Counted from the stretch's first letter, positions 37,163 to 54,191 are shown. The stretch is DNA of 59,248 nt from Myxococcales bacterium (GCA_023248875.1 JAHFDT010000003.1:1-59248); one strand, 5' to 3'. Notes: generated by a model not told the origin, from the sequence alone. A program made the numbers and translations.

Positions 37163-37516
37163 ATGAATTTTAGTCGGGCCGATGGCGCCGCCGCCGAGCG
37201 GATCGCTGCCGAGTATCTCGCCCAGCAAGGCTACAAGATTCTCCACCGGAATTTTACCTGCCGGCTGGGCGAGATCGATCTGGTGTGCGAAGAGGGGCCG
37301 ATCCTCTGCTTTGTCGAAGTCCGGATGCGGCGGGTCGATCGCTATGGCGTAGCGCTCGAGACCATCACGCCCAAGAAGCTAGAGCGGATCGTGCGTACGG
37401 CGCGCTACTTTCTTATGAAGCACAACATGGAGGAGCGCGAGTGCCGGTTTGACGTGGTGACGATTCAGGGGGGAGAGGCGCCCGAGCTGGCCCGCAACGC
37501 TTTTCAGGCGGATTAG
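37163..37516 (+). CDS. yraN: YraN family endonuclease-like protein
   Basis: GEIDLV, FVEVR, CRFDVV. Confidence 0.9.
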   Translation: MNFSRADGAAAERIAAEYLAQQGYKILHRNFTCRLGEIDLVCEEGPILCFVEVRMRRVDRYGVALETITPKKLERIVRTARYFLMKHNMEERECRFDVVTIQGGEAPELARNAFQAD

Positions 37517-37941
37517 TTGCAAGACGGTGTCGGACTGGGGCTCGGGCACTGCGCCGGTGTGATTACGCCACCATCGGCGTCGGAGTTGTAACCGCACAGA
37601 AGATCCGACTTGCACACGCAGGCCTTCTTGCAGGCGAATGGACCCGCCACCGCAGCGACCGCACAGACGAAATTGGAATCGCACAGCCCATCGGCGGGCT
37701 TGCCGATGGTCGCAGGCTTGCAATCGTCATCGGTCTTGCATTCGGTGATGGTGCACACCGCACGCGGCGGATCGCCCATCGCCTTCGGCTGGTGGATGAG
37801 GCACAGGCGGGTCAAGCATTCGAGTGAGGGCGAGGCGATCTGGATGCCCGTACCACCATCGGTACCGACGCACTTGCGCCCGATCCCCTGGTCAGCACAG
37901 CCAGTAAACGCCACCAGCGCGAGGGCGCACATCCATTTCAT
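37513..37941 (-). CDS. Cys-rich lipoprotein, possibly CglC/GltK-like
   Basis: Lipobox FTGC; IGRKC...ECLTRLC...CT..EC pattern reminiscent of myxobacterial CglC (from memory, unverified). Confidence 0.55.
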   Translation of the reverse strand: MKWMCALALVAFTGCADQGIGRKCVGTDGGTGIQIASPSLECLTRLCLIHQPKAMGDPPRAVCTITECKTDDDCKPATIGKPADGLCDSNFVCAVAAVAGPFACKKACVCKSDLLCGYNSDADGGVITPAQCPSPSPTPSCN

Positions 37942-38012
37942 GAGCGTAACTCCATGGAAAAGGCTCGCTCATCCTACACGTCGAAGGGGGCAAGTCAAGC
38001 GCTTGTCCGGCG

Positions 38013-38728
38013 CTACTTCACCTGCTCGGCAGCGCCCCCGGCGGGTTCGGGGCCGAGCAGCGCATCATCGGTCATCTTGTTGAAATCCTCGAGGGTCGCC
38101 ACCGGAATGCCAATCGGTCCGACCCGTTCGTTACCCGCATGGATGAGGCGCGGCGCCAGCACCTCCGGCCCCTTGGCGCGACGGACGCCCATCGCGGTCG
38201 CGAGATTCTGCCCCGGGGCGAGCTCGGCATGCACCAGCCACCACATGCAGCCGCCGTGGACGACATTGGTGCCCGGCATTCGATATTTATGCTGCCCATC
38301 ATAGAGCACGGTTCCCTCGGGCACATATTGCTTAAGCATTCCGTCCCAGTGTTTGAACTCAGGCTCGTCCATCGCCAACGTGAGGTAGTGGCCGCCTTGG
38401 GATGATCTGCGACCGGTGTCTCCGGCCCCGAGTAGTGGTGCAGGGCTAGATGGGGGCGAACGCTGACCGCAGGGTGAACCGCATCGGTCCCGGAGGCACG
38501 CCACACGATGGCGCCATGGTCGAGTTGAAAGGTGGCGAGGAAGTCGTCGTGCGTCTTGGGCAGGACTGGCACGAAATGGCGCTCGATTTGACGGGTGCCA
38601 AGGTCGCGCTGCACCACGCGAACGGGCAGGCCATGTTTGTCGGCATAGGTTTTGGTGAGGGCCGCTAACTTGGGTGGAGCAGCCAGGGCTATGCTGCTCA
38701 GCAGCGATATGCAAAGAGCTCGCCTCAT
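38013..38728 (-). pseudogene. Array paralogue F, frameshifted by a 1-nt deletion near 38400
   Basis: N-half in ORF 38072..38728 (to ...PVADH), C-half in ORF 38013..38714 (QGGHYLTL...EQVK); one extra base at the GGG 38399-38401 would join them. Confidence 0.85.
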
Positions 38729-38817
38729 AGCTTCACCTGCTCCGCCGCGCCGCCGGCGGGTTCGGGGCCGAGCAGCTCATCGTCGGTCAGCTTCTTGAAG
38801 GCCGCGATGGAGGGCAC
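38693..38817. repeat. 125-bp exact direct repeat (second copy 40116-40240) spanning array gene junctions
   Basis: E/F junction identical to C/D junction, offset 1423 bp. Confidence 0.9.
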
Positions 38818-39447
38818 TGGGATGCCGATCGGGCCGACGAGCTCATTGCCGGCGTGGATGAGGCGGGGCGCCAGCACTTCGGGCCCCTTGGCACGACGCA
38901 CGCCCATCGCGGTTGCGAGGTTGAGCCCGTCGGCTAACTCGGCATGCACCAGCCACCACATGCAGCCGCCATGGACCACGTTGGTGCCCGGCATGCGATA
39001 GCGCTCTCGCCCCTCGAAGAGGTTACCGCTGTCGGGGGCCCACTTCTTGATGAAGTCACGCCAATGGGCGTACTGCTTCGGGTCGATGGCCAGGGTGAGG
39101 TAGTGGCCTCCCAGGTCGTGTCCGGGGGCCGACATGTTGGGCGGCGCCTGGAAATGCAGCGTTTCGCCGGGACGAATGCTGACCGCGGGGTGGATGGGAT
39201 CTCCAATGCTGGCGCGCCACACCACTGCACCCTTCTTGACGTTGAAGGTCGCCAAGAAATCGTCGTGGGTCTTCTCCAAGACGGGAACGAAGTGGCGCTC
39301 GATCTCGCGGGTTCCGAGGTCGCGCTGGACCACGCGCACGGGCAGACCGTTCTTCTCCGCATAGGCCTTGGCCAGCGCCGCGAGTGTGGGCGGGTCGGCC
39401 GCTGCAACGCGGCTCGCCACCACCCAGAGGATCAGCAACCGCCTCAT
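38725..39447 (-). CDS. Array paralogue E, secreted protein with H-x11-H and HGGCMWW motifs
   Basis: Signal peptide; shared constant N- and C-blocks; ATGA overlaps on both sides. Confidence 0.9.
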   Translation of the reverse strand: MRRLLILWVVASRVAAADPPTLAALAKAYAEKNGLPVRVVQRDLGTREIERHFVPVLEKTHDDFLATFNVKKGAVVWRASIGDPIHPAVSIRPGETLHFQAPPNMSAPGHDLGGHYLTLAIDPKQYAHWRDFIKKWAPDSGNLFEGRERYRMPGTNVVHGGCMWWLVHAELADGLNLATAMGVRRAKGPEVLAPRLIHAGNELVGPIGIPVPSIAAFKKLTDDELLGPEPAGGAAEQVKL

Positions 39448-40151
39448 GGCTTCACCTGCTCAGCAGCGCCGCCTGCGGGCTCGGGGCCGAGCAGCTCGTC
39501 GTCGGTCATCTTGTTGAAGGCCTCGAGGTTGGGCACGGGAATGCCGACCGGGCCCACGCGCTCGTTCCCCGCGTGGATCAGACGTGGTGCCAGCACTTCC
39601 GGCCCTTTGGCGCGGCGGACCCCCATCACCGTGGCGAGGTTTTGTCCTGGCGCCAGCTCGGCATGCACCAGCCACCACATGCAGCCGCCGTGGACCGTGG
39701 TCGTGCCGGGCATTCGGTACGTAGCATTCCCGGTATGGAGGACGCCCCCCTCGGGGACGTGCTGCCTGATCATCCCCTGCCAATGGTTGAACTCCGGCTC
39801 GTCGACCGCCAGGGTCAGGTAGTAGCCGGCGCCGTGCCCCGGGAACGCTTTGGCATAGAAGTCGAGGACCATGCCAGGACGAATGCCGATGGTCGGGTGC
39901 ACGTGATCGCCTGCGCTGCGCCACACGATCGCACCGCTGCCCACGTGAAAGGTGGCGAGGAAGTCGTCATGCGTGTTGGGAAGCACCGGAACGAAATGGC
40001 GCTCGATCTGGCGCGTGCCGAGGTCGCGCTGCACCACACGAACGGGCAGGCCATGCTTATCGGCGTAGGCCTTGGTAAGCGCGGCCAACTTGGGCGGCGG
40101 CGCGGCGAATGCCAAGCTGCTCAGCAGCGATATGCAAAGAGCTCGCCTCAT
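39444..40151 (-). CDS. Array paralogue D
   Basis: As above; H-x11-D variant. Confidence 0.9.
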   Translation of the reverse strand: MRRALCISLLSSLAFAAPPPKLAALTKAYADKHGLPVRVVQRDLGTRQIERHFVPVLPNTHDDFLATFHVGSGAIVWRSAGDHVHPTIGIRPGMVLDFYAKAFPGHGAGYYLTLAVDEPEFNHWQGMIRQHVPEGGVLHTGNATYRMPGTTTVHGGCMWWLVHAELAPGQNLATVMGVRRAKGPEVLAPRLIHAGNERVGPVGIPVPNLEAFNKMTDDELLGPEPAGGAAEQVKP

Positions 40152-40861
40152 AGCTTCACCTGCTCCGCCGCGCCGCCGGCGGGTTCGGGGCCGAGCAGCT
40201 CATCGTCGGTCAGCTTCTTGAAGGCCGCGATGGAGGGCACGGGAATGCCGATCGGGCCGACGAGCTCATTGCCGGCGTGGATGAGGCGCGGCGCGAGAAC
40301 CTCGGGCCCTTTAGCGCGCCGAACGCCCATCGCCGTGGCTAGGTTGAGCCCTTTGGCAATCTCCGCATGCACGAGCCACCACATGCAGCCGCCATGGACG
40401 ACCTTGGTACCCGGCATGGTGTAGTTGGTCACGTAGATCTGCCCTTCGTCGGGCGCCCACTTCTTGATGAAGCGATGCCAGTGGTCGAACTGCTTTTTAT
40501 CGACTGCCAAAGTGAGGTAGTAGCCACCTGCATCGTGCGCCGCGACTGGCGTTGCGGGAAGGTGCATGTAGTGCAGGGCCAAGTTGGGATGGATGCTGAC
40601 CGCTGGGTGGACCGGATCCTGGCCGAGTGCACGCCATACGATCGCGCCCTTGTCGATCTGAAAGGTGGCGAGGAAGTCGTCGTGCGTCTTGGGCAGGACC
40701 GGCACAAAGTGGCGCTCGATTTGGCGGGTGCCGAGGTCGCGCTGGACCACGCGCACCGGCAGTCCATGTTTCTTGGCGTAGGCTTGGGCCAGGGCCGCGA
40801 GCTTGGGCGGCGCGGCGAAGGCCAGGCTGCTCAGCAGCGATAAGCAGAGAGCGCGGATCAT
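40148..40861 (-). CDS. Array paralogue C
   Basis: As above. Confidence 0.9.
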   Translation of the reverse strand: MIRALCLSLLSSLAFAAPPKLAALAQAYAKKHGLPVRVVQRDLGTRQIERHFVPVLPKTHDDFLATFQIDKGAIVWRALGQDPVHPAVSIHPNLALHYMHLPATPVAAHDAGGYYLTLAVDKKQFDHWHRFIKKWAPDEGQIYVTNYTMPGTKVVHGGCMWWLVHAEIAKGLNLATAMGVRRAKGPEVLAPRLIHAGNELVGPIGIPVPSIAAFKKLTDDELLGPEPAGGAAEQVKL

Positions 40862-40922
40862 TGTTTCACCTGCTCGGCAGCGCCGCCCGCGGGCTCGGGG
40901 CCGAGCAGCTGGTCATCGGTCA
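40797..40922. repeat. 126-bp exact direct repeat (second copy 41516-41641) spanning array gene junctions
   Basis: B/C junction identical to A/B junction, offset 719 bp. Confidence 0.9.
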
Positions 40923-41580
40923 GTTTTTTGAACTCTTCGATGGTCGCCACGGGAATGCCGATCGGGCCGACGAGCTCATTGCCGGCGTGGATGAGGCGCG
41001 GCGCCAGCACCTCCGGCCCCTTGGCGCGCCGCACGCCCATCGCCGTGGCGAGGTTCAGGTTGGGCGCGATGTGGGCGTGGACGAACCACCACATGCAGCC
41101 GCCGTGGAGGGTGCCGCCATTCTCCTTCTGGAAGCTGGGGCCGCCGTTCCAGGGAGTCTGCCCCTGTGTGGCGGCGATGTGCTTATCGAGGAACTGCTCA
41201 TAGTGGGCAACCTGCTCTGGGGTGAGCGCCAGGGTAAGGTATTGGCCACCGATCGCATGGGGCATGACATCGGCTGACTTGCGTTTGAAATAGGAGATCG
41301 AATAGCCGGGTTGGATGGTCAGCTCGCCATGGACCTTGTCGTTGTTGGTCCGCCAGAGGATGGCCCCCTTGCCGGACTGAAACGTAGCGAGGAAATCGTC
41401 ATGGGTGGCGGGCAGCACGGGCACGAAGTGGCGCTCGATTTGGCGGGTGCCGAGATCGCGCTGCACCACGCGAACGGGCAGACCGTGCTTGTCGGCATAG
41501 ACCTTGGTGAGCGCGGCGAGCTTGGGCGGCGCGGCGAAGGCCAGGCTGCTCAGCAGCGATAAGCAGAGAGCGCGGATCAT
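40858..41580 (-). CDS. Array paralogue B (most divergent centre)
   Basis: As above; H-x11-S variant. Confidence 0.9.
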   Translation of the reverse strand: MIRALCLSLLSSLAFAAPPKLAALTKVYADKHGLPVRVVQRDLGTRQIERHFVPVLPATHDDFLATFQSGKGAILWRTNNDKVHGELTIQPGYSISYFKRKSADVMPHAIGGQYLTLALTPEQVAHYEQFLDKHIAATQGQTPWNGGPSFQKENGGTLHGGCMWWFVHAHIAPNLNLATAMGVRRAKGPEVLAPRLIHAGNELVGPIGIPVATIEEFKKLTDDQLLGPEPAGGAAEQVKQ

Positions 41581-42320
41581 TGTTTCACCTGCTCGGCAGC
41601 GCCGCCCGCGGGCTCGGGGCCGAGCAGCTGGTCATCGGTCATTTTGTTGAAATCCTCGATCGTCGCCACCGGGATGCCAATCGGACCGACGCGCTCGTTG
41701 CCCGCATGGATGAGGCGGGGCGCCAGCACCTCCGGCCCCTTGGCACGGCGAACGCCCATCGCGGTAGCAAGGTTGAGATTGGGGGCGAGCTCGGCGTGGA
41801 CCAGCCACCACATGCAGCCGCCGTGGATGATGTTGGTCCCCGGCATTTTGTAAGTCAGGCCCCCCATGGAGAGCGTCTTGTCTCCACCCACATGCGGCTT
41901 GAGCATCCCCTCCCAGTGTTTGACCTCCGGTTCGTCGACCGCCAGGGTCAGGTAATGGCCGCCCTGTAGGTGGGGGAAGACGGCCTGGGCGGCAGCCGGC
42001 GATCGGGCTGGCGAATAGTAATGGAGTGCTTGGCCGGGGCTGAGGCTGATCACGGGGTGAACCGCGTCGCGGCTCGCCCGCCAGACGATCGCTCCCTGGC
42101 CGATTTGGAAAGTATTCAGGAAATCGTCATGGGTGGCGGGCAGCACCGGTACGAAATGGCGCTCGATCTGGCGCGTGCCGAGATCGCGCTGGACTACCCG
42201 CACCGGCAGCCCGTGCTTGTCGGCATAGACCTTGGTGAGCGCGGCGAGCTTGGGCGGCGCGGCGAGGGCCGCGCTGCTGGCGAGAGAGAGCAGGACCAGA
42301 AGCGAGCGCCTCATGGCCAT
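41577..42320 (-). CDS. Array paralogue A
   Basis: As above; AAGGAG RBS, 5 bp downstream of the CoA-transferase homologue. Confidence 0.9.
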   Translation of the reverse strand: MAMRRSLLVLLSLASSAALAAPPKLAALTKVYADKHGLPVRVVQRDLGTRQIERHFVPVLPATHDDFLNTFQIGQGAIVWRASRDAVHPVISLSPGQALHYYSPARSPAAAQAVFPHLQGGHYLTLAVDEPEVKHWEGMLKPHVGGDKTLSMGGLTYKMPGTNIIHGGCMWWLVHAELAPNLNLATAMGVRRAKGPEVLAPRLIHAGNERVGPIGIPVATIEDFNKMTDDQLLGPEPAGGAAEQVKQ

Positions 42321-42325
42321 CTCCT

Positions 42326-43846
42326 TTATTGAGCGGCGGGAGGCGCTGCCACCACCGGCAGCCCCTCGATAAGCTTGGCGTGCTGCTCGGCTGTGACCAG
42401 CTGTCGCTTGAGTGCCTCGTCCGCCACGTCGCGGCGCATTTCAGCGGGTGCCAGCCGGATCGAGTGGTAGACGCTGCGGACCAATTTATCGAACTGTGCC
42501 TGCTGGAGGAGGCCGGCCTTCAGCGGCGCGGCGGCCAGCTCGGCACGCAGCACCGGATGCGCCACTCTCAACATTTCGTAGGTTCGCTGCGCATCCGAGA
42601 GCCCGCGCAGTTTACGCGTTGCGCCCCACTCGGTGACGATGTGGTCGACGTGCTCCTTCGGGGTGGTGACCACGTCCCCGTTGAGCTTGGGAACGATCGT
42701 CGAGCCGCCGTCCTTGTTGCGCGAGCGCAGCGCGAGAATGGCGAGCCCTTTCTTCGACAACGAGGCGCCCTCCATGAAGTCGGGCTGGCCGCCGGGGAAG
42801 CTGATGATCCGATCGCCGATCCGCTCAGCGTTGACATTGCCGGTGAAGTCGACCTCGAGCGCGGTGTTGATGGCGCGCATGCGCGGCTGGGCAGCGATAT
42901 TGGCTGGGTCGTTGACTTCGCCAGTGGTCGCCATGCGGATCTTCGGGTTGTTGCCGGCCAGGCCGTAGAGTGCGTTCGTGCCATGGAGGAAGCTGAAGAC
43001 CGCCTCCTTGACCGCCGGCTTGTCGCCCACCATGAGCTCGCGTACCCAGTCGGAGCCCATTTCGCTCCAGATGCGCATCTTCCGCTTCTGCTGGAGCGCC
43101 GCGCCAACGCCATTGAGCGAGTTGCCGATGCCGACCTGGATGGTGGTGCGCAGGCGGTTCGGCACGAGACGCGCAATGTGGCTGGCGATCGCCTTTTCGG
43201 GCGCGCCCGGCTGGATGCCGTTGTGCTCCGAGAGGATGCCGCCGCCGTCGATCACCGCAGTGAGCTCGTCATATTTGATGCGGTTGCCGTAGGTGTGGGC
43301 GACGTTGGGGTTCACTTCCGCGATGATGCGGCCGCCGCGCGCCTGCGCCGCGCGCAGGGCCATCAGCGTCAGATCGCCCGCCGAACCGAGGCTAACGTAG
43401 CCATCTTTATCGGGCGGGCTCACGCGGACCACCACGGTATCGATCGGCATTTCGCCCGACTGGATCTTCTTGCCCAAATTGAACAGCGAGGCGCGGTGCA
43501 GCGTGGCCGTGCCATCTTTGGCGGCCTGGCGGTTTTGCGGCGAAACGAATAGCAGATTGGGGTGCCACTTGTCCGCCACCTTGGCATCGAAGTTCTGCGA
43601 CGTAGCAAAGGTCGACATGTAGTAGACGTTGGTGCGGTGGGGTCGCGCGAGCGCGGTGGCTCGCATCGCCGGGACCAGATTGGAGGGCATGGCCGAGCCG
43701 GTGGCGAAGAAGACATGGTTGCCCATCTCTTTGGCGGCATCCCCGATCGAAAGCTTCTTCGGTGCGGCGGAGGCTCGTGGCAAAAGAGCCAGTGCGGAGA
43801 GCACCAAAAGGAGCGGGCGGAGGCGTCGGTTAGCGGAAAGGGACAT
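42326..43846 (-). CDS. Acetyl-CoA hydrolase/transferase family protein (4-hydroxybutyrate CoA-transferase-like) with predicted signal peptide
   Basis: VSPPDKDGYVSLG, IAEVNPN, TIQVGIG, WSEM (catalytic Glu position), AINTALEVDFTG, GGQPDF, IVTEWG; N-terminus MSLSANRRLRPLLLVLSALALLPRASA-APKK. Confidence 0.88.
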   Translation of the reverse strand: MSLSANRRLRPLLLVLSALALLPRASAAPKKLSIGDAAKEMGNHVFFATGSAMPSNLVPAMRATALARPHRTNVYYMSTFATSQNFDAKVADKWHPNLLFVSPQNRQAAKDGTATLHRASLFNLGKKIQSGEMPIDTVVVRVSPPDKDGYVSLGSAGDLTLMALRAAQARGGRIIAEVNPNVAHTYGNRIKYDELTAVIDGGGILSEHNGIQPGAPEKAIASHIARLVPNRLRTTIQVGIGNSLNGVGAALQQKRKMRIWSEMGSDWVRELMVGDKPAVKEAVFSFLHGTNALYGLAGNNPKIRMATTGEVNDPANIAAQPRMRAINTALEVDFTGNVNAERIGDRIISFPGGQPDFMEGASLSKKGLAILALRSRNKDGGSTIVPKLNGDVVTTPKEHVDHIVTEWGATRKLRGLSDAQRTYEMLRVAHPVLRAELAAAPLKAGLLQQAQFDKLVRSVYHSIRLAPAEMRRDVADEALKRQLVTAEQHAKLIEGLPVVAAPPAAQ

Positions 43847-43888
43847 GGGTACCCTCGGCCGCATACCATTCGCGGCGCCTCTCCTCTA

Positions 43889-43905
43889 CGCAATGGCCAT
43901 GCCAA
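43889..43905 (-). promoter_or_regulatory. Putative sigma54 -24/-12 promoter
   Basis: Minus strand TTGGCATGGCCATTGCG fits TGGCAY-N5-TTGC, ~43 bp upstream of the ATG at 43846. Confidence 0.6.
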
Positions 43906-43991
43906 GGGAAAGGGCTGCAAAGAGCCGGTTTTTCCGTTCCTGGCCTGGCCAGTCGAGCTGCCATGGCCGGCGGGAATGGCTGCTATTTTCC

Positions 43992-44020
43992 TTGAACCCC
44001 TCTCGCCCAACAATTATGCT
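43992..44020 (+). promoter_or_regulatory. Possible sigma70 promoter of glt operon
   Basis: TTGAAC, 17-bp spacer, TATGCT. Confidence 0.5.
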
Positions 44021-44055
44021 TCCGCTTCCTCGGGAATCCGACCGAAAGGGAGACC

Positions 44056-45705
44056 ATGGACCTTCGTCGACTGGGCGGAATGGCTGTCATTTTTGCACTG
44101 CTTCTTCCTGCGCTCGCGGATGCAAAAAAGAAGACCAAGCCGGAGGAGGGGGGCGAAACCATGACCTTCACGCCCGAGGAGACGGGCGCGGCCAAAGCCA
44201 AGCGGGCGGCGGTGATCGATGAGAAGGCGGCCGCGGGAACCGCTTCGAAGGTGCTCGATAGCGCCCTCAAGCTGTACGAGAAAGAGGACTACTATTCGGC
44301 CACCATCGGGTTGAACAAGGTGATGGAGGGTCAGACCACCGACGATGAGATCAATCGTCAGCGCGCCGAATTCTTTATGGGCAAGGCGCTCTTCAATATG
44401 GGCTACTACTCGGCGTCGCTCTCCTATTTCGACCGCATCGTCCAGCGGGGGGGCGAGCACCACTACTACGCCAAAACGCTGCAGTGGCTGGCATCGCTGT
44501 CGCAAAAGCTGCCCGAGTCGGCGGGCGTGCTCGATAAGATCGGCAAGTACACGCGCGAGGATCTCGACCAGCCGGCGCTCGAATCGGTGCGGGACCAGCT
44601 CTTTTTTCTACTGGGCCGCTACCACTACACGAAGGGCAATTTCAAAGAGGCGGTGGGGCTGTTTCAGGCGCTGCCCGAGGCGAGCGAATTCTACGCCCGC
44701 GCCAAGTTTTTCGAAGGCATCACCTACGTGCGCCAGTACCAGGCGCAGCCCGCTGCCGAGGCCTTCAAGGCGATCTTGCGCAAAGCCAAGGAGCACCCCG
44801 ATAAGGCCACCCAGGAGTTCGAGGAGCTGGCCAACATTTCCTTGGCGCGCACCTTTTATTCCCTATCGCAGTTCGACAAGGCGGTGAAGTATTTCGACCG
44901 TGTGCCGACCGAATCGGCCGACTGGTTGGCGTCGCTGTTCGAGTCGGCCTGGGCGCAGTTCCAGATCGACGGCGACTCGAAGGCGCTCGGCAATATCCAT
45001 TCGATCAACGCGCCATTTTTCGAGAACGAATTCTATCCCGAGTCGCTGATTTTGAAGGCGGTCATCTACTTCCAACGCTGCAACTACGAGCTGGCGATGG
45101 CGGCGGTGGCGGAGTTCAACGAGACCTATCCGGGGCTGAAGAAGGACATCGAAAAGGTAATCAACAAGTACCCGGACAACGCGGCTTTTTACAAGTATGT
45201 GCTCCGGATCCGCCGCGGCGAATCGGGGCTACCCGACCGTGTGCAGCGCGCGGCCGAGGGGGCGCTGTCGGACAAGACGCTGGTCAAGACGCTCGACTAT
45301 GTCGCCGAGCTCGACCGCGAGCTGCACCAGGTGGAGAAATCAGACCCGGCCTGGAAGTCGACGGCCATCGCTGGCAACATCTTGCAGGATCTGACGCTAC
45401 AGCAGTCCCTGGCGCAGAACGATGCCGGCACCATGGCACGTGATCGCCTCAAGCGGCTCTCGACGGAGATCCAGGAGCTGGTGAAGCAGGCGCTCAAGAT
45501 CGAGTACGAAACGCTGAATGCGCAAAAGGGCGTGCTGGAGGCGTCGCTGCGGAGCGAGCAGTCGGTCGCGAGCGGCACCGCGCGCAAGAATGCCGAGGTG
45601 GTCGCCGATGATGAGCACGAGAAGTGGCCCTTCGACGGCGAGTATTGGCAGGACGAGCTCGGGTACTATAAGTCCCGCATCGTCAACAAGTGCTCGGCCA
45701 AGTGA
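44056..45705 (+). CDS. gltC: Adventurous gliding motility TPR protein GltC-like
   Basis: Signal peptide, TPRs, C-terminal DDEHEKWPFDGEYWQDELGYY motif. Confidence 0.8.
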   Translation: MDLRRLGGMAVIFALLLPALADAKKKTKPEEGGETMTFTPEETGAAKAKRAAVIDEKAAAGTASKVLDSALKLYEKEDYYSATIGLNKVMEGQTTDDEINRQRAEFFMGKALFNMGYYSASLSYFDRIVQRGGEHHYYAKTLQWLASLSQKLPESAGVLDKIGKYTREDLDQPALESVRDQLFFLLGRYHYTKGNFKEAVGLFQALPEASEFYARAKFFEGITYVRQYQAQPAAEAFKAILRKAKEHPDKATQEFEELANISLARTFYSLSQFDKAVKYFDRVPTESADWLASLFESAWAQFQIDGDSKALGNIHSINAPFFENEFYPESLILKAVIYFQRCNYELAMAAVAEFNETYPGLKKDIEKVINKYPDNAAFYKYVLRIRRGESGLPDRVQRAAEGALSDKTLVKTLDYVAELDRELHQVEKSDPAWKSTAIAGNILQDLTLQQSLAQNDAGTMARDRLKRLSTEIQELVKQALKIEYETLNAQKGVLEASLRSEQSVASGTARKNAEVVADDEHEKWPFDGEYWQDELGYYKSRIVNKCSAK

Positions 45706-45731
45706 GGGCGCAGATGAAACTAGCGAAAACA

Positions 45732-45803
45732 CCGCGCGGGGAGCGCGCGGCAGGGGGAGGCTCGAGCGAGCTTGGATCGCTGGAGGGGGACGGGAAGGTC
45801 CCC
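45732..45803. repeat. Three-hairpin intergenic element, copy 2
   Basis: CCGCGCG-N5-CGCGCGG (45732-45750), imperfect CTCGAGCGA/TCGCTGGAG stem, GGGGAC-GGGAAG-GTCCCC (45786-45803). Confidence 0.85.
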
Positions 45804-45812
45804 GAGTATGCC

Positions 45813-45863
45813 GAGCTTGGGTACTACAAATCGCGCATCGTCAACAAGTGCTCGGCCAAGTGA
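45813..45863 (+). repeat. 51-bp duplicate of gltC 3' end (45655-45705)
   Basis: Encodes the same ELGYYKSRIVNKCSAK-stop; 47/51 identical, four third-position synonymous differences. Confidence 0.95.
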
Positions 45864-45877
45864 GAGGTTAGGTTCCG

Positions 45878-48800
45878 ATGAATCGAGTTGCCTTCGGGAG
45901 CACCCTTTTGTGGGTAGCCGTCGCCACCGCTGTTCCTCCTAAATACACCAAAAAAGAGGCGTCGGTGACGTCGCAGCAGACCGCGCTCACCAAGCCGGCG
46001 CAGCGGGCCAAAGAGGAAAAACAGCGGCCCACCATCGATGCTTCCGATGTATTCGGCGGCGTGGGTGAGCAGCTCAAAGCGGTCACAGATCAGCAGATCA
46101 AAGTGATGCAGCGCCTCATCGAGAACACCGGTGACGACGATCCGGAAAAGCCCGACTATCATTTCCGCATCGCGGAGCTCTACGCGCAGCAGGAGCACTA
46201 CTACAGCTTCCGCGCCCGCGAGCTCGACCAAAAGATCTTCGAAGCGGTGCAGGCGAACAAGGCGGCGGTGGCCGAGCAGTTCAAGAAGCAGCAGACCGAT
46301 TACGAAAACCGCGAGAAAACTTGGCTCAAGGCCGCGGTCAAGGAGTACCTGAAGGTCACCGAGAATCCCAAGTTCAATGGCTACAAGCGCATGGACGAGG
46401 TGCTGTTCTACCTCGCCTTTCTTTTGACGCAGCAGAAGCGCGAAGATCTGGCGCGACCGATCTTCAAGCGCCTCATCAAGGACTATCCCGATTCGAAGTA
46501 CATCCCCGATGCACTGCTCTCCTTCGGGGAGTACTACTTCGAGCAGAAGGACATCGAGAATGCGCTGCGTTTTTACGACAAGGTGCTGCAGTATCCGCAA
46601 TCGCGCGTCTTTGGCTACGCGCTCTATAAGAAGGGTTGGTGCTACCTCAACCTGCAGGACTTCAAATCGGCCCTGCAGATTTTCGAGAGGGTGATCCTCG
46701 AAACCAAAGTCGACAAGAAGGACACCAACAAGCTATCGCTTTTGAAAGAGGCGAAGAAGGATTCGGTGCGCGCCTACTCGCAGATTTCGTCGGCGCCGCC
46801 CGACAAGGCGTGGCCCTATTTTCAGCGCATCGGCGGCGATTTTGCGCCGACCATGCTCGAGCAGCTGGGGGAGCTCTACAACGCGCAGGGCAAATTCCCC
46901 GAGAGCATCGTGATCTATCGGCAGCTCATCAAGCTCAACCCCACTTCGCCCAAGCTCTGTTCGTGGCAGGAGGAGATCCTGCGCAACACACTGTCGAAGA
47001 CCGGTTCGCGCGCTACCCCCGAGGCGGTGCAGGAGCTCGAGCGCCTATCGGCGGTGCTGGAAAAGTTCAAGACCATGGCGGGCGTGAAGAGGGAGGCGGT
47101 CGAGGAGTGCCGCGATAACACCGCTGGCTCGCTGCGCGAGCTCGCGACGACCTGGCACAAAGAGGCGCAGAAGACCAACGTCAAGGAGACCTACGCGCTC
47201 GCCCAGTCGCTCTACAAGGAGTACATCACGAAGTTTCCCGAGGAGAAGGATGTCTACCCGATGACCTTCTACTACGGCGAACTCCTGTTCAAGTTGGAGA
47301 AGTTCTGCGATTCGGCGCCGGTCTATACCAACGTTGTCACGATGAACGGGGGCAACGACGCGCGCTATCGCAACGAGTCGGCCTACGCGGCGGTCATTTC
47401 GTGGAAGAACTGCCTCGCGGTTGACGACCAGGAGCATGTCGACGAGAGCCAGCGCAAGGGGGTGGTGAAGGACGTTCGCGACCAAAAGAAGGGCAAGGGC
47501 AAGGAGAAGGACCCGGAGAAGAGCCGGGCCGAGGAGCTGGCGAAGTTCAAGCCGCTCGAGATCCCGGAGAAGTGGCACAAGATGCTCGACGCCTTCGACA
47601 CCTACATCAAGTACGTGCCGAATTCTCCCGAGCTTCCGACCATCCGCTACCGTAAAGCGCGCGTTTTCTACGAATACAACCACTTCGAAGATGCGGCGAA
47701 GTTTTTCCGCGAGGTGGTCGAAAACCATCGCGATTCGGAGCTCGCGCCGGTAGCGGCCAACCTGCTTTTCGATTGCGATAACATTCTGCGGCAGGCGCAA
47801 AGCGGCACCTTTGAGCAGCTGCGCGGCGATACCAAGAAGTACTGCAGCTGGCCCGATCTCATCAAGGATGGCGACTTCGTCAAGCAGTGCGACACCATCA
47901 CGGCGAATCTGACCCGCATGGAGATCGAGGACTTCGAGCACAAGGGGGAAAAGGACATCAAGTACTATCGCAAGGCCGCCGATATGTACTGCAAGCTGGC
48001 GGAGGAGCACCCTGAAGACCCGAAGGTGGACGAGGTCTGGTACAACTGCGCGATCGATTACGAGCGCGCCAAGCAGCTTGGCAAGGCGATCGAAACGCGC
48101 ATCAAATTGATCAAGTTGAAGCCTGTCAGCATACTCGCGCAAAAGTCGGTCTTTTTCCTGGGGCGCGCCTACCGCGACATCGCCGCCTACGACAAGGCGG
48201 CGGAGCAGTTCGAGACCTTTGCCGTCAAGTATCCGGGGGAGAAGGCCAAGCCGGGCGACCGCAGTGCGCCCGACGCTGCGACCGCGCTCTATTCCGCGTC
48301 GATCTATCGGCGCGGCCTCGGCGAGGTGGAAAAGGCGGTCGAGGATGCTAAGAAGTTCGTCGATCTTTACGGCAATCGCGGTAAGGAGAACGAAGACAAG
48401 GCGGCGGGCGTCTTCTTTGGTCTGGCGCAGATCTATGAGCAGCAGAAGGATCGCGTGAAGCTGGCGAAGCATCTGAACGACTATCTGAAGGCCTGGGGGC
48501 AAAAGGGTGGCGCGGATCGACAGATCATCGCCAATGTGAAGCTGGGCGAGCTCGCCTGGGCCGATAGCTGCCCGGTGGCGGGGGTCAACGGCGCCTGCAT
48601 CGAGGTGACCCGCGTGCGTGCTTCGTCGGCGACGCGCGTGGCAGAAAGAGCGAGCAAGGGCAAGAAGGGCAAGAAGCTGAAGAAGAAGGGCGCGGTGCTG
48701 CCGGCGCAGTGCGGGCCGGAGACCAAATCGAAGATCACGCTGCATGAGCGCAAGCCGGCGCTGATCAAGCAGGCGCAGGACTACTTTGCTGCAGCGATGA

Positions 48801-49516
48801 AGGAGTATGCGAACGGCGCGGCAGTGAAGAAGATCCCCGGCAAAGACGAGGCGGAGCGGGCGGCGCGGGCCGATTCGATGATGTACTACGTGGCCGAGGC
48901 GCGCTCGATGGAGGGCAATCGGGAGTATGAGAAGCTGATTGGAATGAAGATCCCGGACAAGCTCGACTTTACGCCCGTCGATGTCAGCGCGTCGAAGGCC
49001 AAGCAGGCCAAGGACAAGAAGCGGCTCGACGACAACAGCAAGAAGTTTAAGACCTGGTACGAGACCAAGATCAAGCAGGTCGATACGGCGCAGAAGATCT
49101 ACCAGCAGGTGATTCTGTTCAAGCAGGCCCACTGGGCGATCGCAGCGGCGGCACGAATCGGTCAGATCTTCCAGGACTTCTCGGGTCAGCTCTACACTGC
49201 ACCGGTGCCGAAGGCAGGCAAGGCGCCGGAGGGGATGTCGCAGGAGGAGTTCGACCAACTCTTCCATGACTCCTACTGCGACCAGATGACCGATACCGCC
49301 GAGCCGCTCGAGACCAAGGCGGTTGAGGGGCTTTCGACCTGTCTCAAGAAGTCGACCGACCTGCAGTGGTTCAACGAGTGGTCGGCGCTGTGCGAGGCGG
49401 AGCTCAACCAGATCAAGCCGCAGGAGTACCCGCTCGCGTCGGAGATCCGCGGCGTGCCTGGCTACTTCGATAAACGGCCCGATTCGGCGTCCTTGATTAC
49501 GGAGCTCAAACAATGA
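45878..49516 (+). CDS. gltD: Large periplasmic TPR gliding protein GltD/AgmU-like
   Basis: 1212 aa, signal peptide, many TPRs, C-terminal WAIAAAARIG...EPLE.KA...FNEWS; upstream of gltE/F/G-like genes. Confidence 0.8.
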   Translation: MNRVAFGSTLLWVAVATAVPPKYTKKEASVTSQQTALTKPAQRAKEEKQRPTIDASDVFGGVGEQLKAVTDQQIKVMQRLIENTGDDDPEKPDYHFRIAELYAQQEHYYSFRARELDQKIFEAVQANKAAVAEQFKKQQTDYENREKTWLKAAVKEYLKVTENPKFNGYKRMDEVLFYLAFLLTQQKREDLARPIFKRLIKDYPDSKYIPDALLSFGEYYFEQKDIENALRFYDKVLQYPQSRVFGYALYKKGWCYLNLQDFKSALQIFERVILETKVDKKDTNKLSLLKEAKKDSVRAYSQISSAPPDKAWPYFQRIGGDFAPTMLEQLGELYNAQGKFPESIVIYRQLIKLNPTSPKLCSWQEEILRNTLSKTGSRATPEAVQELERLSAVLEKFKTMAGVKREAVEECRDNTAGSLRELATTWHKEAQKTNVKETYALAQSLYKEYITKFPEEKDVYPMTFYYGELLFKLEKFCDSAPVYTNVVTMNGGNDARYRNESAYAAVISWKNCLAVDDQEHVDESQRKGVVKDVRDQKKGKGKEKDPEKSRAEELAKFKPLEIPEKWHKMLDAFDTYIKYVPNSPELPTIRYRKARVFYEYNHFEDAAKFFREVVENHRDSELAPVAANLLFDCDNILRQAQSGTFEQLRGDTKKYCSWPDLIKDGDFVKQCDTITANLTRMEIEDFEHKGEKDIKYYRKAADMYCKLAEEHPEDPKVDEVWYNCAIDYERAKQLGKAIETRIKLIKLKPVSILAQKSVFFLGRAYRDIAAYDKAAEQFETFAVKYPGEKAKPGDRSAPDAATALYSASIYRRGLGEVEKAVEDAKKFVDLYGNRGKENEDKAAGVFFGLAQIYEQQKDRVKLAKHLNDYLKAWGQKGGADRQIIANVKLGELAWADSCPVAGVNGACIEVTRVRASSATRVAERASKGKKGKKLKKKGAVLPAQCGPETKSKITLHERKPALIKQAQDYFAAAMKEYANGAAVKKIPGKDEAERAARADSMMYYVAEARSMEGNREYEKLIGMKIPDKLDFTPVDVSASKAKQAKDKKRLDDNSKKFKTWYETKIKQVDTAQKIYQQVILFKQAHWAIAAAARIGQIFQDFSGQLYTAPVPKAGKAPEGMSQEEFDQLFHDSYCDQMTDTAEPLETKAVEGLSTCLKKSTDLQWFNEWSALCEAELNQIKPQEYPLASEIRGVPGYFDKRPDSASLITELKQ

Positions 49517-50799
49517 CCCGCGCTATCCTGATCACTCTTTTCATGGCAGGTGTGGCGAGTGCCAAGAGTGAGCCCAAGTCGGTGGCCCCGGACTTTGCCA
49601 AGCTGGTAGTGAAGGTGGCGGAGGCGCGCAAGGCGGTGCCAGGGGGCAAGCTCACCGCCGATCTGAGCGTGCGCTTCGCCAGCGATTTCATGTCGCTAGG
49701 AAAGGAGGGCGCTTCGGCCGAGTCCTACTTTAACGCCGGGGTGCTGTCGGCCCAGGCGGGGGATACCGCGGCCGCGGAACGCGCCTATCGCGCGGCGATC
49801 GATGCCAACACCAACTTTGCGCCGGCCCACGCCAATCTCGGGGAGCTCGCCTACAAGGCGGGCAAGATCGACCTGGCGCAGCAGGAGTTTGAGACGGCGC
49901 TCAAGCTCGATCCCAAGAATGTGGCGGCCTACAACGGCAGCGCCCTCTTGCTGTTCGAAAAGGCGGCGGCGACCAACAACGCGGTGCTGCTCAAGGAGGC
50001 GGTCGGCAAGTTGCGGCGCGCACTGGCGGTCGACGCCGAATCGATGCCCGCCTATTCGCTGCTCGCCCTCATCTATTATGCGCTGGCCGAGGCCGACCCG
50101 TCGAAGCTCGATCTGGCCAAGCTCGTGTGCGAGCAGGGGCTCGAGGTCGATAAGGAGCATCCGCAGATCTACAACACGCTTGGGCTCATCTACCTCGAGC
50201 GCAAGAACGTGACGCTCGCGCTCCAGCAGTTTCGTAACGCGGTGAAGTACGATCCCAAGTACGTGGAGGCCCAGCTCAACATCGGCGCAATCACGCTTAA
50301 TGCGCGTGGGTATCAGGAGGCGGAGGCGGCGTTTAAAGCGGTGCTTGAGGCCAAACCAACGCTTGAGCAGCAGTTCGATGCCACGGTCGGGATGGGGGTG
50401 GCGCTGCGGGGGCAGCGGCGCGTCGATGAGGCGGAGCAGTGGTATGCCAAGGCCAAGGCACTTTCGCCGGGAGCCTGCGCGCTGTCCTACAACTTGGGGG
50501 TGCTCTACCAGGACTACAAGTCGGGGAACGAGGCCGATCAGACCAAGGCCAAGGGGCTGTTTCAGGAGTTTCTCAAGTGCGGCCAGGCGGATCCCGACAA
50601 GCTCAAGGATGGCGCTCGCCGGATCAAGGACATCGACGACTACTTCAAGGCACTGGTCGAGCAGAAGAAGCTGGAAGAGGAGAATCGCAAGCTGCAGGAA
50701 GAGGCGGAGAAGATGATGAAGCAGCAGCAGGAGCAGGAGCGGCTGCAGCAGCAACAGGCTTCGCCACCGCCCGCTCCGGGGCCGCCGGTCAAGAAATAG
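49513..50799 (+). CDS. gltE: TPR gliding protein GltE/AglT-like
   Basis: Signal peptide, TPRs, GVALRGQ, YNLGVLY, Gln/Glu coiled-coil and Pro-rich tail. Confidence 0.75.
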   Translation: MTRAILITLFMAGVASAKSEPKSVAPDFAKLVVKVAEARKAVPGGKLTADLSVRFASDFMSLGKEGASAESYFNAGVLSAQAGDTAAAERAYRAAIDANTNFAPAHANLGELAYKAGKIDLAQQEFETALKLDPKNVAAYNGSALLLFEKAAATNNAVLLKEAVGKLRRALAVDAESMPAYSLLALIYYALAEADPSKLDLAKLVCEQGLEVDKEHPQIYNTLGLIYLERKNVTLALQQFRNAVKYDPKYVEAQLNIGAITLNARGYQEAEAAFKAVLEAKPTLEQQFDATVGMGVALRGQRRVDEAEQWYAKAKALSPGACALSYNLGVLYQDYKSGNEADQTKAKGLFQEFLKCGQADPDKLKDGARRIKDIDDYFKALVEQKKLEEENRKLQEEAEKMMKQQQEQERLQQQQASPPPAPGPPVKK

Positions 50800-50845
50800 T
50801 GGGAACCCTTGGGTTGCACGGTTGTCAAAGGCTAGGAGGATCCAG

Positions 50846-51112
50846 ATGAAGCGCGCGATTTTCGCCTCTTGGGTATTGCTTTCAGCTCCCCTGGGGGCGC
50901 AAAAGCCGGCCGCGACGCCGGCGCCAGCAGCCGCTGGGGTCAGCTACAAGCAGAAGACCGTCTACGACTTCGACGATGATGTGGTCGAGGGCGATCTGGT
51001 GCGACCCGACGGTGATTTTGTCGACACCCGCAAGGCGGCGAAGCACTCGTCGCTCATCAAGATGCGCGCGAACTTCATCCCTGAGATGCTCAAGTCGGCT
51101 GAAGATATCTAG
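50846..51112 (+). CDS. gltF: Gliding protein GltF/CglF-like
   Basis: YKQKTVYDFDDDVVEGDLVRPDG...HSSLIKMRANF. Confidence 0.85.
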   Translation: MKRAIFASWVLLSAPLGAQKPAATPAPAAAGVSYKQKTVYDFDDDVVEGDLVRPDGDFVDTRKAAKHSSLIKMRANFIPEMLKSAEDI

Positions 51113-51123
51113 GAGCCTTTCCG

Positions 51124-53265
51124 ATGCCCAATGGCGTGACGATCCCTCTCCAGTTTGAGATCTACAAAGGGGGCGAACTGGTTCGTACCGAGACCCTGAC
51201 CCAAGATGTCATCAAGGTCGGCAAGCTCTCCTCCTCGCATCTGCGGATCGAAGACGAGAATGTTTCGCGGATGCATGCGGTGATCGAAATCACCAGCCCG
51301 ACGGAGATTTCGATCATTGATCTGGGTTCATCCAAGGGAACGATCGTCAATGGGCAGAAGGTCAACAAGGGCCGCCTCAAATCGGGGGATGAGATTCTCC
51401 TCGGCAATACGCGTCTGGTGCTGACCGTCGGAGAGCCGGTGGCGGCTGCGGCGCAGGCGACGATCGTTTCGGCGCCGGCCCCGGTGCCCTCGCCCCTCCC
51501 AGCGCCGGTCGTCCCTCCTCCCCAGTATGCCCCCCCTCTATTGGCACCGCTCTCCCTGGAAGCGGTCGAAGTGCGCGATGGCTCGCAGGCCATCGAAGTG
51601 GTGGCGCTGTTCGAAAACGCCATCCTCGATACGCGCCACTACACCAACCCGGCCGCGGGCGATGTGCAGGGCAGCACCAAAGGGATCCTGGCCGGCGCTG
51701 CGGGTTCGCTGTTTGGCGCCTTCGTGTTGTTCGTGGTCGCCTGGTTTCAGGTCGATCGGCTCCAGCAGGTGCGCGAGGCGTGGGAGAAGGCCAATCCTGG
51801 CAAGGGCACCAATGAGTTTCCCATGCCCCACGAGGGGCCGTGGATGGATATCGTCGTGGCGGTGCTGCTGGTGTCGGGCCTTTCGCTTTTGATCTGGGGC
51901 CTGCTGCGCCTCTTCGAAGAGCGCCAGCCGCGCCACTTTACGATCGGCCCGGCCGCGGATGCACTGGTCAACGTCCCGGCGAATCTTGTGCCCACAGCAA
52001 ACTTTCCGCTGGTCCGCTCGACCGGCAGCGCCTATGAGCTGCTCTTTACCCCGGCGATGCAGGGCGATGTTACCCTCGCAGCGCGCGTGCATACGCTGCA
52101 GGAGCTGGTGGCCCAGGGGCGCGCCCCGGCTTCGAGTGCGGTGGCGGGCGCCCATGCGTTTGCCATCCCCGAGGGCGCACGCGCGCGTGTCGACCTCGAC
52201 CAGGCGACCTTTCTGGTCAATTCGGTGGCGCCGCCGCGCCGCCATCCGGTGCCATTCAAACTCGATTGGGATCTTTTGGCGCCGCTGGTCGGCTGCTTCG
52301 TCGGTGGCGCCCTGTTCCTCGGGATGATTTTTTCAATTCCGCCCGATCCCAAATCACTGTCGCTCGATGCCTTTTTGAACGACCAGCGCTTCGCCAAATT
52401 CGTCATCAAGCCGCCCGAGGAGAAGGAGGAGCAGATCCCCGAGTGGCTCAAGAAGAAGGGGCCCGATGAGGCGGGTGGCAAGGGCAAGCGCCACAAGGGC
52501 GAAGAGGGCAAGATGGGCAAGAAGACCTCCAAAAACAAGGCGGGTCTCTATGCGCTCAAGGGGCCGAAAGACAACACCGACCCGCATCTGGCCAAGCAGC
52601 TGGCCACCGAGGCGGCGCAAAAGGCGGGCGTACTCGGGATCTTGAAGGCCAACGAGGGATCGCACCTGGCCTCGATCTTTGGGCGCGACTCGGCGCTCGG
52701 TAACGATGCGGAGAATGTGCTCGGCGGGCTGGTCGGAACGCAGGTGGGCGAGGCGTATGGCGTCGGCGGCCTGGGGCTCGTCGGATCGGGGCGCGGTGGA
52801 GGCGGCACGGGCGAAGGGACGATCGGTCTTGGCAATCTCGGAACCATCGGCAAAGGCGGCGGCGGTGGCTCGGGTTCAGGCTATGGCCGCGGAGCCGGCG
52901 GGCTCGGTGGGCGGCGCGCGCACGCCCCCGATGTGGTGCCCGGCACGGCGCAGGTGCGCGGCTCGCTGGATAAAGAGATCATCCGCCGCATCATCCGCCG
53001 CCATATCAACGAGGTGAAGTTCTGCTACGAGAAGGAGCTGACGAAAAACCAGAATCTTTACGGGCGCGTGATCATTCAGTTCACGATCGCCGGCACCGGA
53101 CAGGTGGTGGCCTCCCTGGTGCAGCAGTCGACCATGAACAACCCGCCGGTCGAGCAGTGCATCGCGGGTGCGCTGCGGCGTTGGGAGTTCCCGAAGCCGA
53201 ATGGCGGCGGCATCGTCATCGTCTCCTATCCCTTCGTTCTCAAGTCCGCCGGCGGGGAGGAATAG
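51124..53265 (+). CDS. gltG: GltG/PglI-like FHA + TM + Gly-rich linker + TonB-C protein
   Basis: FHA (IKVGK..VSRMHA..DLGSSKGT.VNG), TM segments, Gly-rich linker, GSLDKEIIRRII...CYE...WEFPKP..GG..IVSYPF. Confidence 0.85.
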   Translation: MPNGVTIPLQFEIYKGGELVRTETLTQDVIKVGKLSSSHLRIEDENVSRMHAVIEITSPTEISIIDLGSSKGTIVNGQKVNKGRLKSGDEILLGNTRLVLTVGEPVAAAAQATIVSAPAPVPSPLPAPVVPPPQYAPPLLAPLSLEAVEVRDGSQAIEVVALFENAILDTRHYTNPAAGDVQGSTKGILAGAAGSLFGAFVLFVVAWFQVDRLQQVREAWEKANPGKGTNEFPMPHEGPWMDIVVAVLLVSGLSLLIWGLLRLFEERQPRHFTIGPAADALVNVPANLVPTANFPLVRSTGSAYELLFTPAMQGDVTLAARVHTLQELVAQGRAPASSAVAGAHAFAIPEGARARVDLDQATFLVNSVAPPRRHPVPFKLDWDLLAPLVGCFVGGALFLGMIFSIPPDPKSLSLDAFLNDQRFAKFVIKPPEEKEEQIPEWLKKKGPDEAGGKGKRHKGEEGKMGKKTSKNKAGLYALKGPKDNTDPHLAKQLATEAAQKAGVLGILKANEGSHLASIFGRDSALGNDAENVLGGLVGTQVGEAYGVGGLGLVGSGRGGGGTGEGTIGLGNLGTIGKGGGGGSGSGYGRGAGGLGGRRAHAPDVVPGTAQVRGSLDKEIIRRIIRRHINEVKFCYEKELTKNQNLYGRVIIQFTIAGTGQVVASLVQQSTMNNPPVEQCIAGALRRWEFPKPNGGGIVIVSYPFVLKSAGGEE

Positions 53266-53266
53266 G

Positions 53267-54097: not shown

Positions 54098-54130
54098 TAT
54101 TCTCCGACGGGAAAAGGGTTCAGTTGGCGG

Positions 54131-54159
54131 TTGATCAAGCCCTCACCGGATGTTATAAA
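54131..54159 (+). promoter_or_regulatory. Possible sigma70 promoter of the giant TPR gene
   Basis: TTGATC, 17-bp spacer, TG-N-TATAAA. Confidence 0.55.
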
Positions 54160-54191
54160 AACACTCCCCCACATCCGGTCTAGAGGTACTG

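Follow-up and report, generated by a model that had tools for sequence, protein, structure and literature searches.

A rare family of secreted-looking paralogues with variable centres is paired with an exported-type class I CoA-transferase homologue in Myxococcales

CoA-transferases are textbook cytoplasmic enzymes, and their cofactor, coenzyme A (CoA), stays inside the cell. What, then, could a homologue of these enzymes be doing behind an export signal, at the head of an array of small, diversified proteins that themselves appear to be secreted? This question is raised by a cassette of seven minus-strand genes within a stretch of 59,248 nucleotides (nt) from a groundwater metagenome-assembled genome (MAG) of a Myxococcales bacterium (GCA_023248875.1 JAHFDT010000003.1:1-59248; the whole stretch is hereafter called the window). 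The CoA-transferase homologue comes first in this cassette and is followed by six paralogues, p1-p6. The original prediction, made from the DNA sequence, described a six-gene array chained by ATGA overlaps and starting 5 nt past a CoA-transferase homologue, and both the coordinates and the junctions were confirmed: p1 starts 5 nt past the CoA-transferase stop, and 4-nt ATGA overlaps link the paralogues at all five junctions. The genes of the cassette are listed below, with lengths in amino acids (aa); throughout, residue numbers of the paralogue family are those of p1, and residue numbers of the CoA-transferase are those of the 512-aa window protein.

42326-43864, minus strand: exported-type class I CoA-transferase homologue, 512 aa, with PF13336 and PF02550 domains and a signal-like N-terminus
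41577-42320, minus strand: paralogue 1 (p1), 247 aa, with its sole mature Cys, C169, in the motif HGGCMWW, and with H205 and N208 in the motif HAGNE
40858-41580, minus strand: paralogue 2 (p2), 240 aa, with the second type of centre; sister of the solitary copy on contig C275
40148-40861, minus strand: paralogue 3 (p3), 237 aa
39444-40151, minus strand: paralogue 4 (p4), 235 aa
38725-39447, minus strand: paralogue 5 (p5), 240 aa
38013-38728, minus strand: paralogue 6 (p6), in two frames in the window, with a 1-nt homopolymer difference at 38399-38401

Five of the six paralogue genes are thus intact open reading frames of 235-247 aa, as originally described, and the sixth is split between two frames in the window. 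A seventh, solitary family copy is located on a different contig of the same genome (G000:C275:37023-37772).

The transferase and the partner family form a pair that is conserved and inherited together. Among the nine family loci that were examined, from six genomes, the exported-type transferase is directly adjacent at three: in the window, in G012:C61, where a transferase 72% identical to that of the window lies directly upstream of three family copies, and in G478:C50 (L026) from a Polyangiaceae MAG, where a coiled-coil variant of the family is followed directly downstream by the transferase. Two further loci (G022:C33 and G056:C294) abut a contig end. Moreover, at least seven protein clusters contain both parts as a fusion, with the family domain at the N-terminus and the CoA-transferase domains at the C-terminus. 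The family domain was detected with E-values of 1e-33 or better in P0054, P0185 and P0118/P0166, and of 8e-8 to 6e-6 in P0219, P0230, P0206 and P0236; P0233 is a fusion by motifs only, without a hidden Markov model (HMM) or BLAST match. A signal-like N-terminus was detected in eight of nine fusion proteins using our own heuristic, which was applied to all signal calls in this work. The fusions, along with metagenome contigs that carry six family copies, are known from protein sequences, and several linkages among the metagenome proteins were assigned from contigs of matching size.

The two parts also diverge in step. The bit scores of both parts against the respective window proteins, compared over 11 paired units, give a Spearman coefficient of 0.95, the p-value of which overstates the significance because the 11 units share kinship, and one of these units, P0074/P0177, was paired through contigs of matching size. 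Given that the fusions span the deepest splits of both families and that the two parts co-diverge, chance adjacency is unlikely. Conversely, none of 60 relatives of the window genome and none of 400 other genomes of the phylum was found to have an exported-type transferase but not the family; only G012 has such a transferase, and it has the family too. In the genomes searched, the window-type transferase is always accompanied by the partner family, unlike the canonical class I forms. The initial suggestion that the array acts together with the CoA-transferase accordingly gains support from adjacency in three genomes, from the fusions and from co-divergence, and the linkage of array and transferase recurs in genomes other than that of the window.

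What kind of transferase heads the cassette? The 512-aa protein matches PF13336 (the C-terminal domain of these enzymes; E = 1.7e-44; 151.9 bits, cut-off 23.7) and PF02550 (the N-terminal domain; E = 5.5e-6; 26.9 bits, cut-off 24), stays far under every NCBIfam equivalog cut-off (the best model, TIGR03948, gives 121 bits against a cut-off of 674.8) and shows a weak match to TIGR01584 citF (E = 0.019). Its closest solved relatives are 4-hydroxybutyrate CoA-transferases, 9vag (6.4e-51) and 3gk7 (1.7e-47), with alignments over about 400 residues. The putative catalytic residue E268, in an SEM motif, is aligned with E238 (likewise SEM) of 3GK7, which is described as the active-site glutamate in passages of PMC11659651; these passages also assign CoA contacts to the QxGhG loop and to Gln337 of 3GK7. 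In the window protein, the QxGhG loop corresponds to Q243-V-G-I-G247, and the GGQxDF motif, at positions 358-363, reads GGQPDF, with Q360 aligned with Gln337 of 3GK7. For AarC, passages of PMC4876117 assign the role of nucleophile to Glu294 and that of internal oxyanion to Asn347; N318 of the window protein, which is located 50 residues past the Glu and 41 residues before the GGQ Gly (53 and 41 in AarC), is probably, judging by spacing only, the counterpart of Asn347. Nine residues (Q243, G245, G247, E268, N318, G358, G359, Q360 and F363) are invariant in all 44 homologues compared, 33 close and 11 canonical ones. With AbfT (3GK7), AarC and the Cat1-type enzymes, the window transferase shares the two Pfam domains, the aligned Glu and the external-oxyanion and CoA-contact motifs (GGQxDF and the QxGhG loop), and its catalytic and CoA-contact elements appear to be intact.

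At the same time, this protein differs from the canonical class I CoA-transferases in having a signal-like peptide, no Cys, about 40 extra residues at the N-terminus and about 60-70 at the C-terminus, and its identity to them is at most 34%. The N-terminus is basic, then hydrophobic, and ends in ASA. The homologues split sharply into about 40 clusters that are at least 44% identical to the window protein (at least 358 bits) and the rest, which are at most 39% identical (at most 206 bits). A signal-like N-terminus was found in 29 of the 33 full-length unfused members of this clade as opposed to 3 of 68 canonical or GNAT-fused homologues; of the four exceptions within the clade, one is truncated, and the hydrophobic core of the other three is typical but for a His or Gln. 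Cysteine is absent past residue 40 in 31 of the 33 clade members, whereas 67 of the 68 canonical homologues have at least one (median 4), and this loss is a sign of an oxidising compartment that is independent of the signal-like N-termini. The median number of residues ahead of the catalytic domain is 60 in the clade and 19 elsewhere, and the median number past R440 is 76 against 13, some positions of the C-terminal extension being conserved; twin arginines are present in some clade members only. Taken together, these sequence features suggest that class I CoA-transferases include a separate, exported clade, of which the window protein is a member. A keyword search of the literature (titles and abstract openings) for CoA-transferases or acetyl-CoA hydrolases that are exported or periplasmic returned nothing relevant.

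The partner proteins are a rare family without a name, in agreement with the initial failure to recognise one. None of the five intact copies was matched by Pfam or NCBIfam, and a one-by-one scan of 46 family members never gave the same Pfam family twice (best E = 0.075). A collection of 5.8 billion proteins holds 53 family proteins, and a profile read of all 1.84 billion proteins gave 119 family representatives, 62 of them with E-values of 1e-30 or better. The family is carried by 4 of the 60 relatives of the window genome (3 of 41 inside its order), and was found in none of the 400 other phylum genomes sampled (up to six candidates scored per genome), in none of 80 relatives of the second carrier, G478, in no entry of the plasmid and phage collections and at no locus in scans of metagenome contigs. 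The labelled carriers are MAGs assigned to Polyangia, Myxococcales and Polyangiaceae.

Several positions are conserved throughout this family. Among 121 full-length members, R54 is found in 119, C169 and W172 in 113 each, H205 in 111, R192 in 109, N208 in 107 and R41 in 106, and the set R54/C169/W172/H205/N208 is retained in the most distant fusions as well. The mature protein contains exactly one Cys in 53 of 110 members and two in 37. A signal-like N-terminus in 95 of the 110 members of 225-330 aa supports the original view of the paralogues as secreted proteins of one family, and the quoted motifs are present. That they are enzymes is only suggested, by the conservation of C169, H205, N208 and R54.

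Several unusual relatives were observed alongside these members. In family variants of 600-980 aa (P0074, P0096, P0088, P0093, P0084, P0106, P0090 and L026 1-2853), a long, Q-rich, repetitive coiled-coil region interrupts the loop that follows the HAGNE strand; the LxGPxPxGG tail, which is conserved, reappears at the extreme C-terminus. At G478:C71:24656-26372 (L064 8477-10823), there are two tandem, strongly divergent members with extra inserts and a CGH(G/A)CMDF motif, with no transferase inside about 8 kb. Directly upstream of the solitary seventh copy on G000:C275, two tandem secreted-looking small paralogues of 174 and 175 aa are encoded (L009 6923-7447 and 7479-8006).

The constant-variable-constant layout claimed for the array was recovered with clear margins between the blocks. 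Compared pairwise, the six copies are on average 85% identical in the N-block (22-82), 38% in the centre (83-165) and 89% in the C-block (166-246), which confirms the diversity of the centres; among 46 family members the corresponding values are 57%, 25% and 67%. In p1 the variable centre extends into the loop just ahead of C169. The copies are old duplicates whose constant ends are held by purifying selection: the mean synonymous divergence (dS) is 1.04 in the N-block, 1.17 in the centre and 0.78 in the C-block, and the ratio of nonsynonymous to synonymous divergence (dN/dS) is 0.12, 0.61 and 0.10, respectively. Given the high dS in every block, recent gene conversion was rejected as the source of the constant blocks, and the constant ends are read as kept by selection; only local traces of conversion were noticed, for instance in p2 and p3, which share the same DNA sequence for the signal peptide. 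The centre appears to be relaxed or diversifying. The dN/dS comparison by block separated a centre at about 0.6 from ends at about 0.1 without revealing positive selection in the centre: dS is near saturation, and the ratios of 1 or more, in contrast to the mean below 1, occur only between two centre types that align poorly. In a quick tree, p1, p3, p4, p5 and p6 form one clade with a support of 97 in the Shimodaira-Hasegawa-like approximate likelihood-ratio test (SH-aLRT), and p2 groups with the C275 copy (SH-aLRT 94). The arrays on two metagenome contigs, to which their proteins were assigned indirectly, comprise three subtypes with counterparts between both contigs.

The favoured reading of this pair, to which we give a little less than an even chance, is that it constitutes a two-part exported system of thiol-dependent acyl transfer in which the variable centre sets specificity. 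Under this scenario, the transferase and a paralogue would form a complex, an acyl or thioester group would be relayed between Glu268 in the former and Cys169 in the latter, and the variable centre, reaching the loop ahead of C169, would give each paralogue its own acceptor or target outside the cytoplasm. In the AlphaFold2 model of p1 (mean predicted local distance difference test, pLDDT, 89.1; predicted template modelling score, pTM, 0.85), C169 is predicted to open a helix (168-174).

There are partial parallels to such an arrangement. Many of the nearest non-exported homologues of the transferase (within P0207-P0278) are CoA-transferase fusions of 614-671 aa with a C-terminal GNAT acetyltransferase, so that in these proteins (e.g. 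P0209) a Cat1-type domain is likewise linked to a further, acyl-group-handling domain. These fusions differ from those described here in that the GNAT domain is C-terminal, a signal peptide is lacking, Cys is present and the identity is 28-35%, whereas the partner family, which is unrelated to GNAT, is N-terminal in its fusions; by analogy, they weakly suggest that the partner here may also handle acyl groups. In citrate lyase (CitF-CitD) and malonate decarboxylase (MdcA-MdcC), a CoA-transferase homologue uses the thiol of a partner protein instead of free CoA. The carriers CitD and MdcC bear a CoA-like prosthetic group on a serine and are cytoplasmic, and they have no sequence relation to the family described here, so the precedent that they offer for a protein partner replacing CoA is conceptual.

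Building on this precedent, a bolder version of the proposal can be formulated, which we consider distinctly unlikely: C169 of the partner could itself replace CoA as the thiol, the transferase shuttling acyl groups between carboxylates and C169. An ester or amide bond that already exists would then supply the energy, captured as acyl-cysteine, and the centre of each paralogue would steer the activated group to a different acceptor. If true, this would amount to activation of carboxylates independent of ATP and CoA outside the cytoplasm, for instance on polymers of the envelope or of prey.

A number of observations weigh against a two-part acyl-transfer system. Neither CoA nor acyl-CoA is known to occur in extracytoplasmic compartments, where a CoA-dependent cycle would thus be left without a donor. 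Four of the nine family loci (G000:C275, G022:C358, G028:C371 and G478:C71) have no transferase in the sequence at hand, and three genomes carry the family with no exported-type transferase found, namely G022 (76% complete), G028 (71%) and G056 (95%), the transferase homologue of G028 being canonical and Cys-bearing. C169 is missing from 8 of the 121 full-length members, and its putative role as a nucleophile is read from conservation only. The signal-peptide calls come from our own heuristic and from AxA sites identified by eye, not from a trained predictor. The fold searches with the p1 model belong here too: Foldseek against the PDB gave no match at E = 0.001 or better (best E = 0.16), and a VIA scan of 48,161 chains gave none at Z of 5 or more (best Z = 4.3), so that the search for a family match with structure models, which had been proposed at the outset, was carried through without yielding a clear solved relative. 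The ESM Atlas likewise contained no usable match for p1.

The best VIA rows are nevertheless worth recording, all of them being under the noise level of the tool: 3kw0, a cysteine peptidase (Z = 4.3, root-mean-square deviation (rmsd) 4.0, 132 residues aligned), 2if6, YiiX (Z = 3.8, rmsd 4.0, 121 aligned), 6v98, TseH (Z = 3.7, rmsd 4.2, 122 aligned), and about 20 further rows with nucleotidyltransferase-like folds (Z = 2.2-3.1). Three of the four best rows are of the papain-like kind represented by NlpC/P60 and Peptidase_C92 (YiiX), whose catalytic Cys at the start of a helix, paired with a His, may have a counterpart in the conserved C169 and H205 of the paralogues. This resemblance, with its Z values below noise, is accompanied by no Foldseek or Pfam match, and the profile comparison, made for Peptidase_C92 only, also counts on the negative side (hhalign of the family against 16 Peptidase_C92 sequences, probability 0.25%). 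A separate resemblance of the N-block to the SUMO2/ubiquitin-like beta-grasp was judged to be due to chance: the E-value is 0.027 for a single chain and reaches 0.0011 only for tandem di-SUMO, and the match spans only the helix and later elements, with a SUMO strand aligned onto a predicted helix. It was set aside because it is at odds with the predicted secondary structure.

The evidence for the pairing does not by itself require that the paralogues catalyse anything. They could be non-catalytic subunits, such as adaptors, targeting modules or regulators, with all the chemistry done by the transferase, the centre docking substrates or surfaces, and C169, H205 and N208 binding a metal or ligand or playing a structural role. 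The same evidence of adjacency, fusion and co-divergence fits this alternative equally, the paralogues have no detectable homology to any enzyme family, the coiled-coil loop insert of about 650 aa (P0074, P0096 and L026) resembles a stalk or scaffold, and the clade-specific C-terminal extension of the transferase could serve for docking. However, a single unpaired Cys that is 93% conserved in an exported protein would be unusual for a pure scaffold, and the family occurs without an exported-type transferase in the three genomes mentioned above, all of which are incomplete to some degree; we regard non-catalytic subunits as rather unlikely. The problem of the missing CoA would be solved in another way if both parts were exported effectors that act inside prey or competitor cells, where acyl-CoA exists, a possibility that overlaps with the two-part acyl-transfer system. 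The transferase would then perturb the acyl-CoA pool of the target or supply acyl-CoA, and the paralogues would be Cys-dependent modifiers of different proteins. The intact catalytic and CoA-contact residues, the diversified centres, the tandem arrays with birth-and-death turnover, the patchy distribution and the inserted state of the cassette are all compatible with such effectors, and the host phylum includes predators. Against this stand the lack of a linked delivery system, immunity gene or toxin-like domain, the transferase being the only neighbour common to the loci, and the mean dN/dS of the centre, which is below 1; the lifestyle of the groundwater MAG gives no support either. An effector role of both parts therefore appears unlikely to us.

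Finally, the array and the CoA-transferase might be unrelated neighbours, that is, ordinary secreted or structural proteins beside an enzyme, or else a toxin with its immunity array. The absence of the transferase from some family loci would fit the former, and tandem arrays of small variable proteins are typical of immunity genes. Given the fusions in at least seven clusters and the co-divergence, this alternative is highly improbable, being largely refuted by the fusions. A toxin-immunity array in particular was rejected: the copies have signal-like N-termini and are fused to the enzyme, and there is no toxin or immunity family among the Pfam and NCBIfam matches. Immunity proteins are not normally fused to the toxin, and immunity to a CoA-dependent toxin would be expected to be cytoplasmic.

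How the cassette came to its present place is a separate matter. The surrounding features are the following.

37942-44055: inserted cassette of about 6.1 kb, as delimited by comparison with two genomes of the same family
43865-44055: divergent intergenic region of 191 nt between the CoA-transferase gene and the GltC-like gene, presumed promoter region
37513-37941, minus strand: gene for a 142-aa Cys-rich lipoprotein-like protein with a lipobox-like FTGC and no Pfam family, left edge of the insertion
44056-59246, plus strand: Glt/Nfs-like gene cluster, all matches under the NCBIfam cut-offs

The original prediction placed the array between gliding-related genes. This is correct for one side only, where, from 44056 on, GltC-like (549 aa, 5.2e-104), GltE-like (1.3e-28) and GltG-like (1.6e-140, with an AgmX/PglI C-terminal domain) proteins are encoded, together with a 1212-aa tetratricopeptide repeat (TPR) protein and two more TPR proteins, the second of which is longer than 1685 aa and continues past the end of the window; the other flank consists of rimM-trmD-rplS-yraN and the lipoprotein gene. 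In G003 and G001, which belong to the same family, the gene order is rimM-trmD-RNA methyltransferase-rplS-yraN-lipoprotein-gltC-like-TPR, with the lipoprotein (59% identical in G003 and 42% in G001) directly adjoining the gltC-like gene. In the window these two genes are 6.1 kb apart (37942-44055), and the interval is exactly the cassette. In G012 the cassette is located elsewhere, between genes for a TPR protein and an alpha/beta hydrolase, and the gltC-like gene is on another contig. Given this gene order in G003 and G001 and the placement in G012, the cassette was either inserted or, as an island, lost differentially, and its closeness to the Glt-like genes is incidental. The G+C content is 65% in the cassette and 61-63% in the flanks. 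No mobile-element genes or boundary repeats were identified, and the intergenic DNA shows no conservation between the window and the relatives, which prevents mapping of the insertion boundaries; a promoter and terminator scan of the cassette gave a chance-level result. Farther away in the window of this Myxococcota MAG, at 25695-27983 on the plus strand, a 762-aa PorU-like protein (type IX secretion sortase; 3.2e-70, 237 bits against a cut-off of 420) is encoded.

The break in p6 is poor evidence for a dead gene. It coincides with a run of three C on the minus strand at 38399-38401, where one more base is required to keep the frame. An intact p6 of 238 aa (P0002) is present in the protein collection on two other contigs and is identical everywhere but at the residue at the break, and the extra G behind 38398 is carried by one contig of 255 nt from the groundwater metagenome run X1. 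Because of this intact allele and of the X1 contig with the extra base, the break is read as an assembly error or a strain variant. In the same run, a 372-nt contig joins 39449 back to 38016 (38016-38111 plus 39175-39449), with 13 mismatches on the short side, a junction that is most likely an assembler or mapper mix-up of the near-identical C-blocks of neighbouring copies. The sequencing runs that hold the locus are groundwater metagenomes from one study, with no RNA run among them.

To return to the two-part acyl-transfer system, the central observation is that the exported clade, some 35 protein clusters, keeps every mapped catalytic and CoA-contact residue despite the export signals and a loss of Cys typical of extracytoplasmic proteins. 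The outcome would be either thioester chemistry in the envelope or outside the cell by an undescribed route, or delivered effectors of a new type, and the natural fusions could serve directly as single-chain constructs in tests. In both cases, a novel kind of enzyme system working outside the cytoplasm would be gained, and a new protein family would receive a name.

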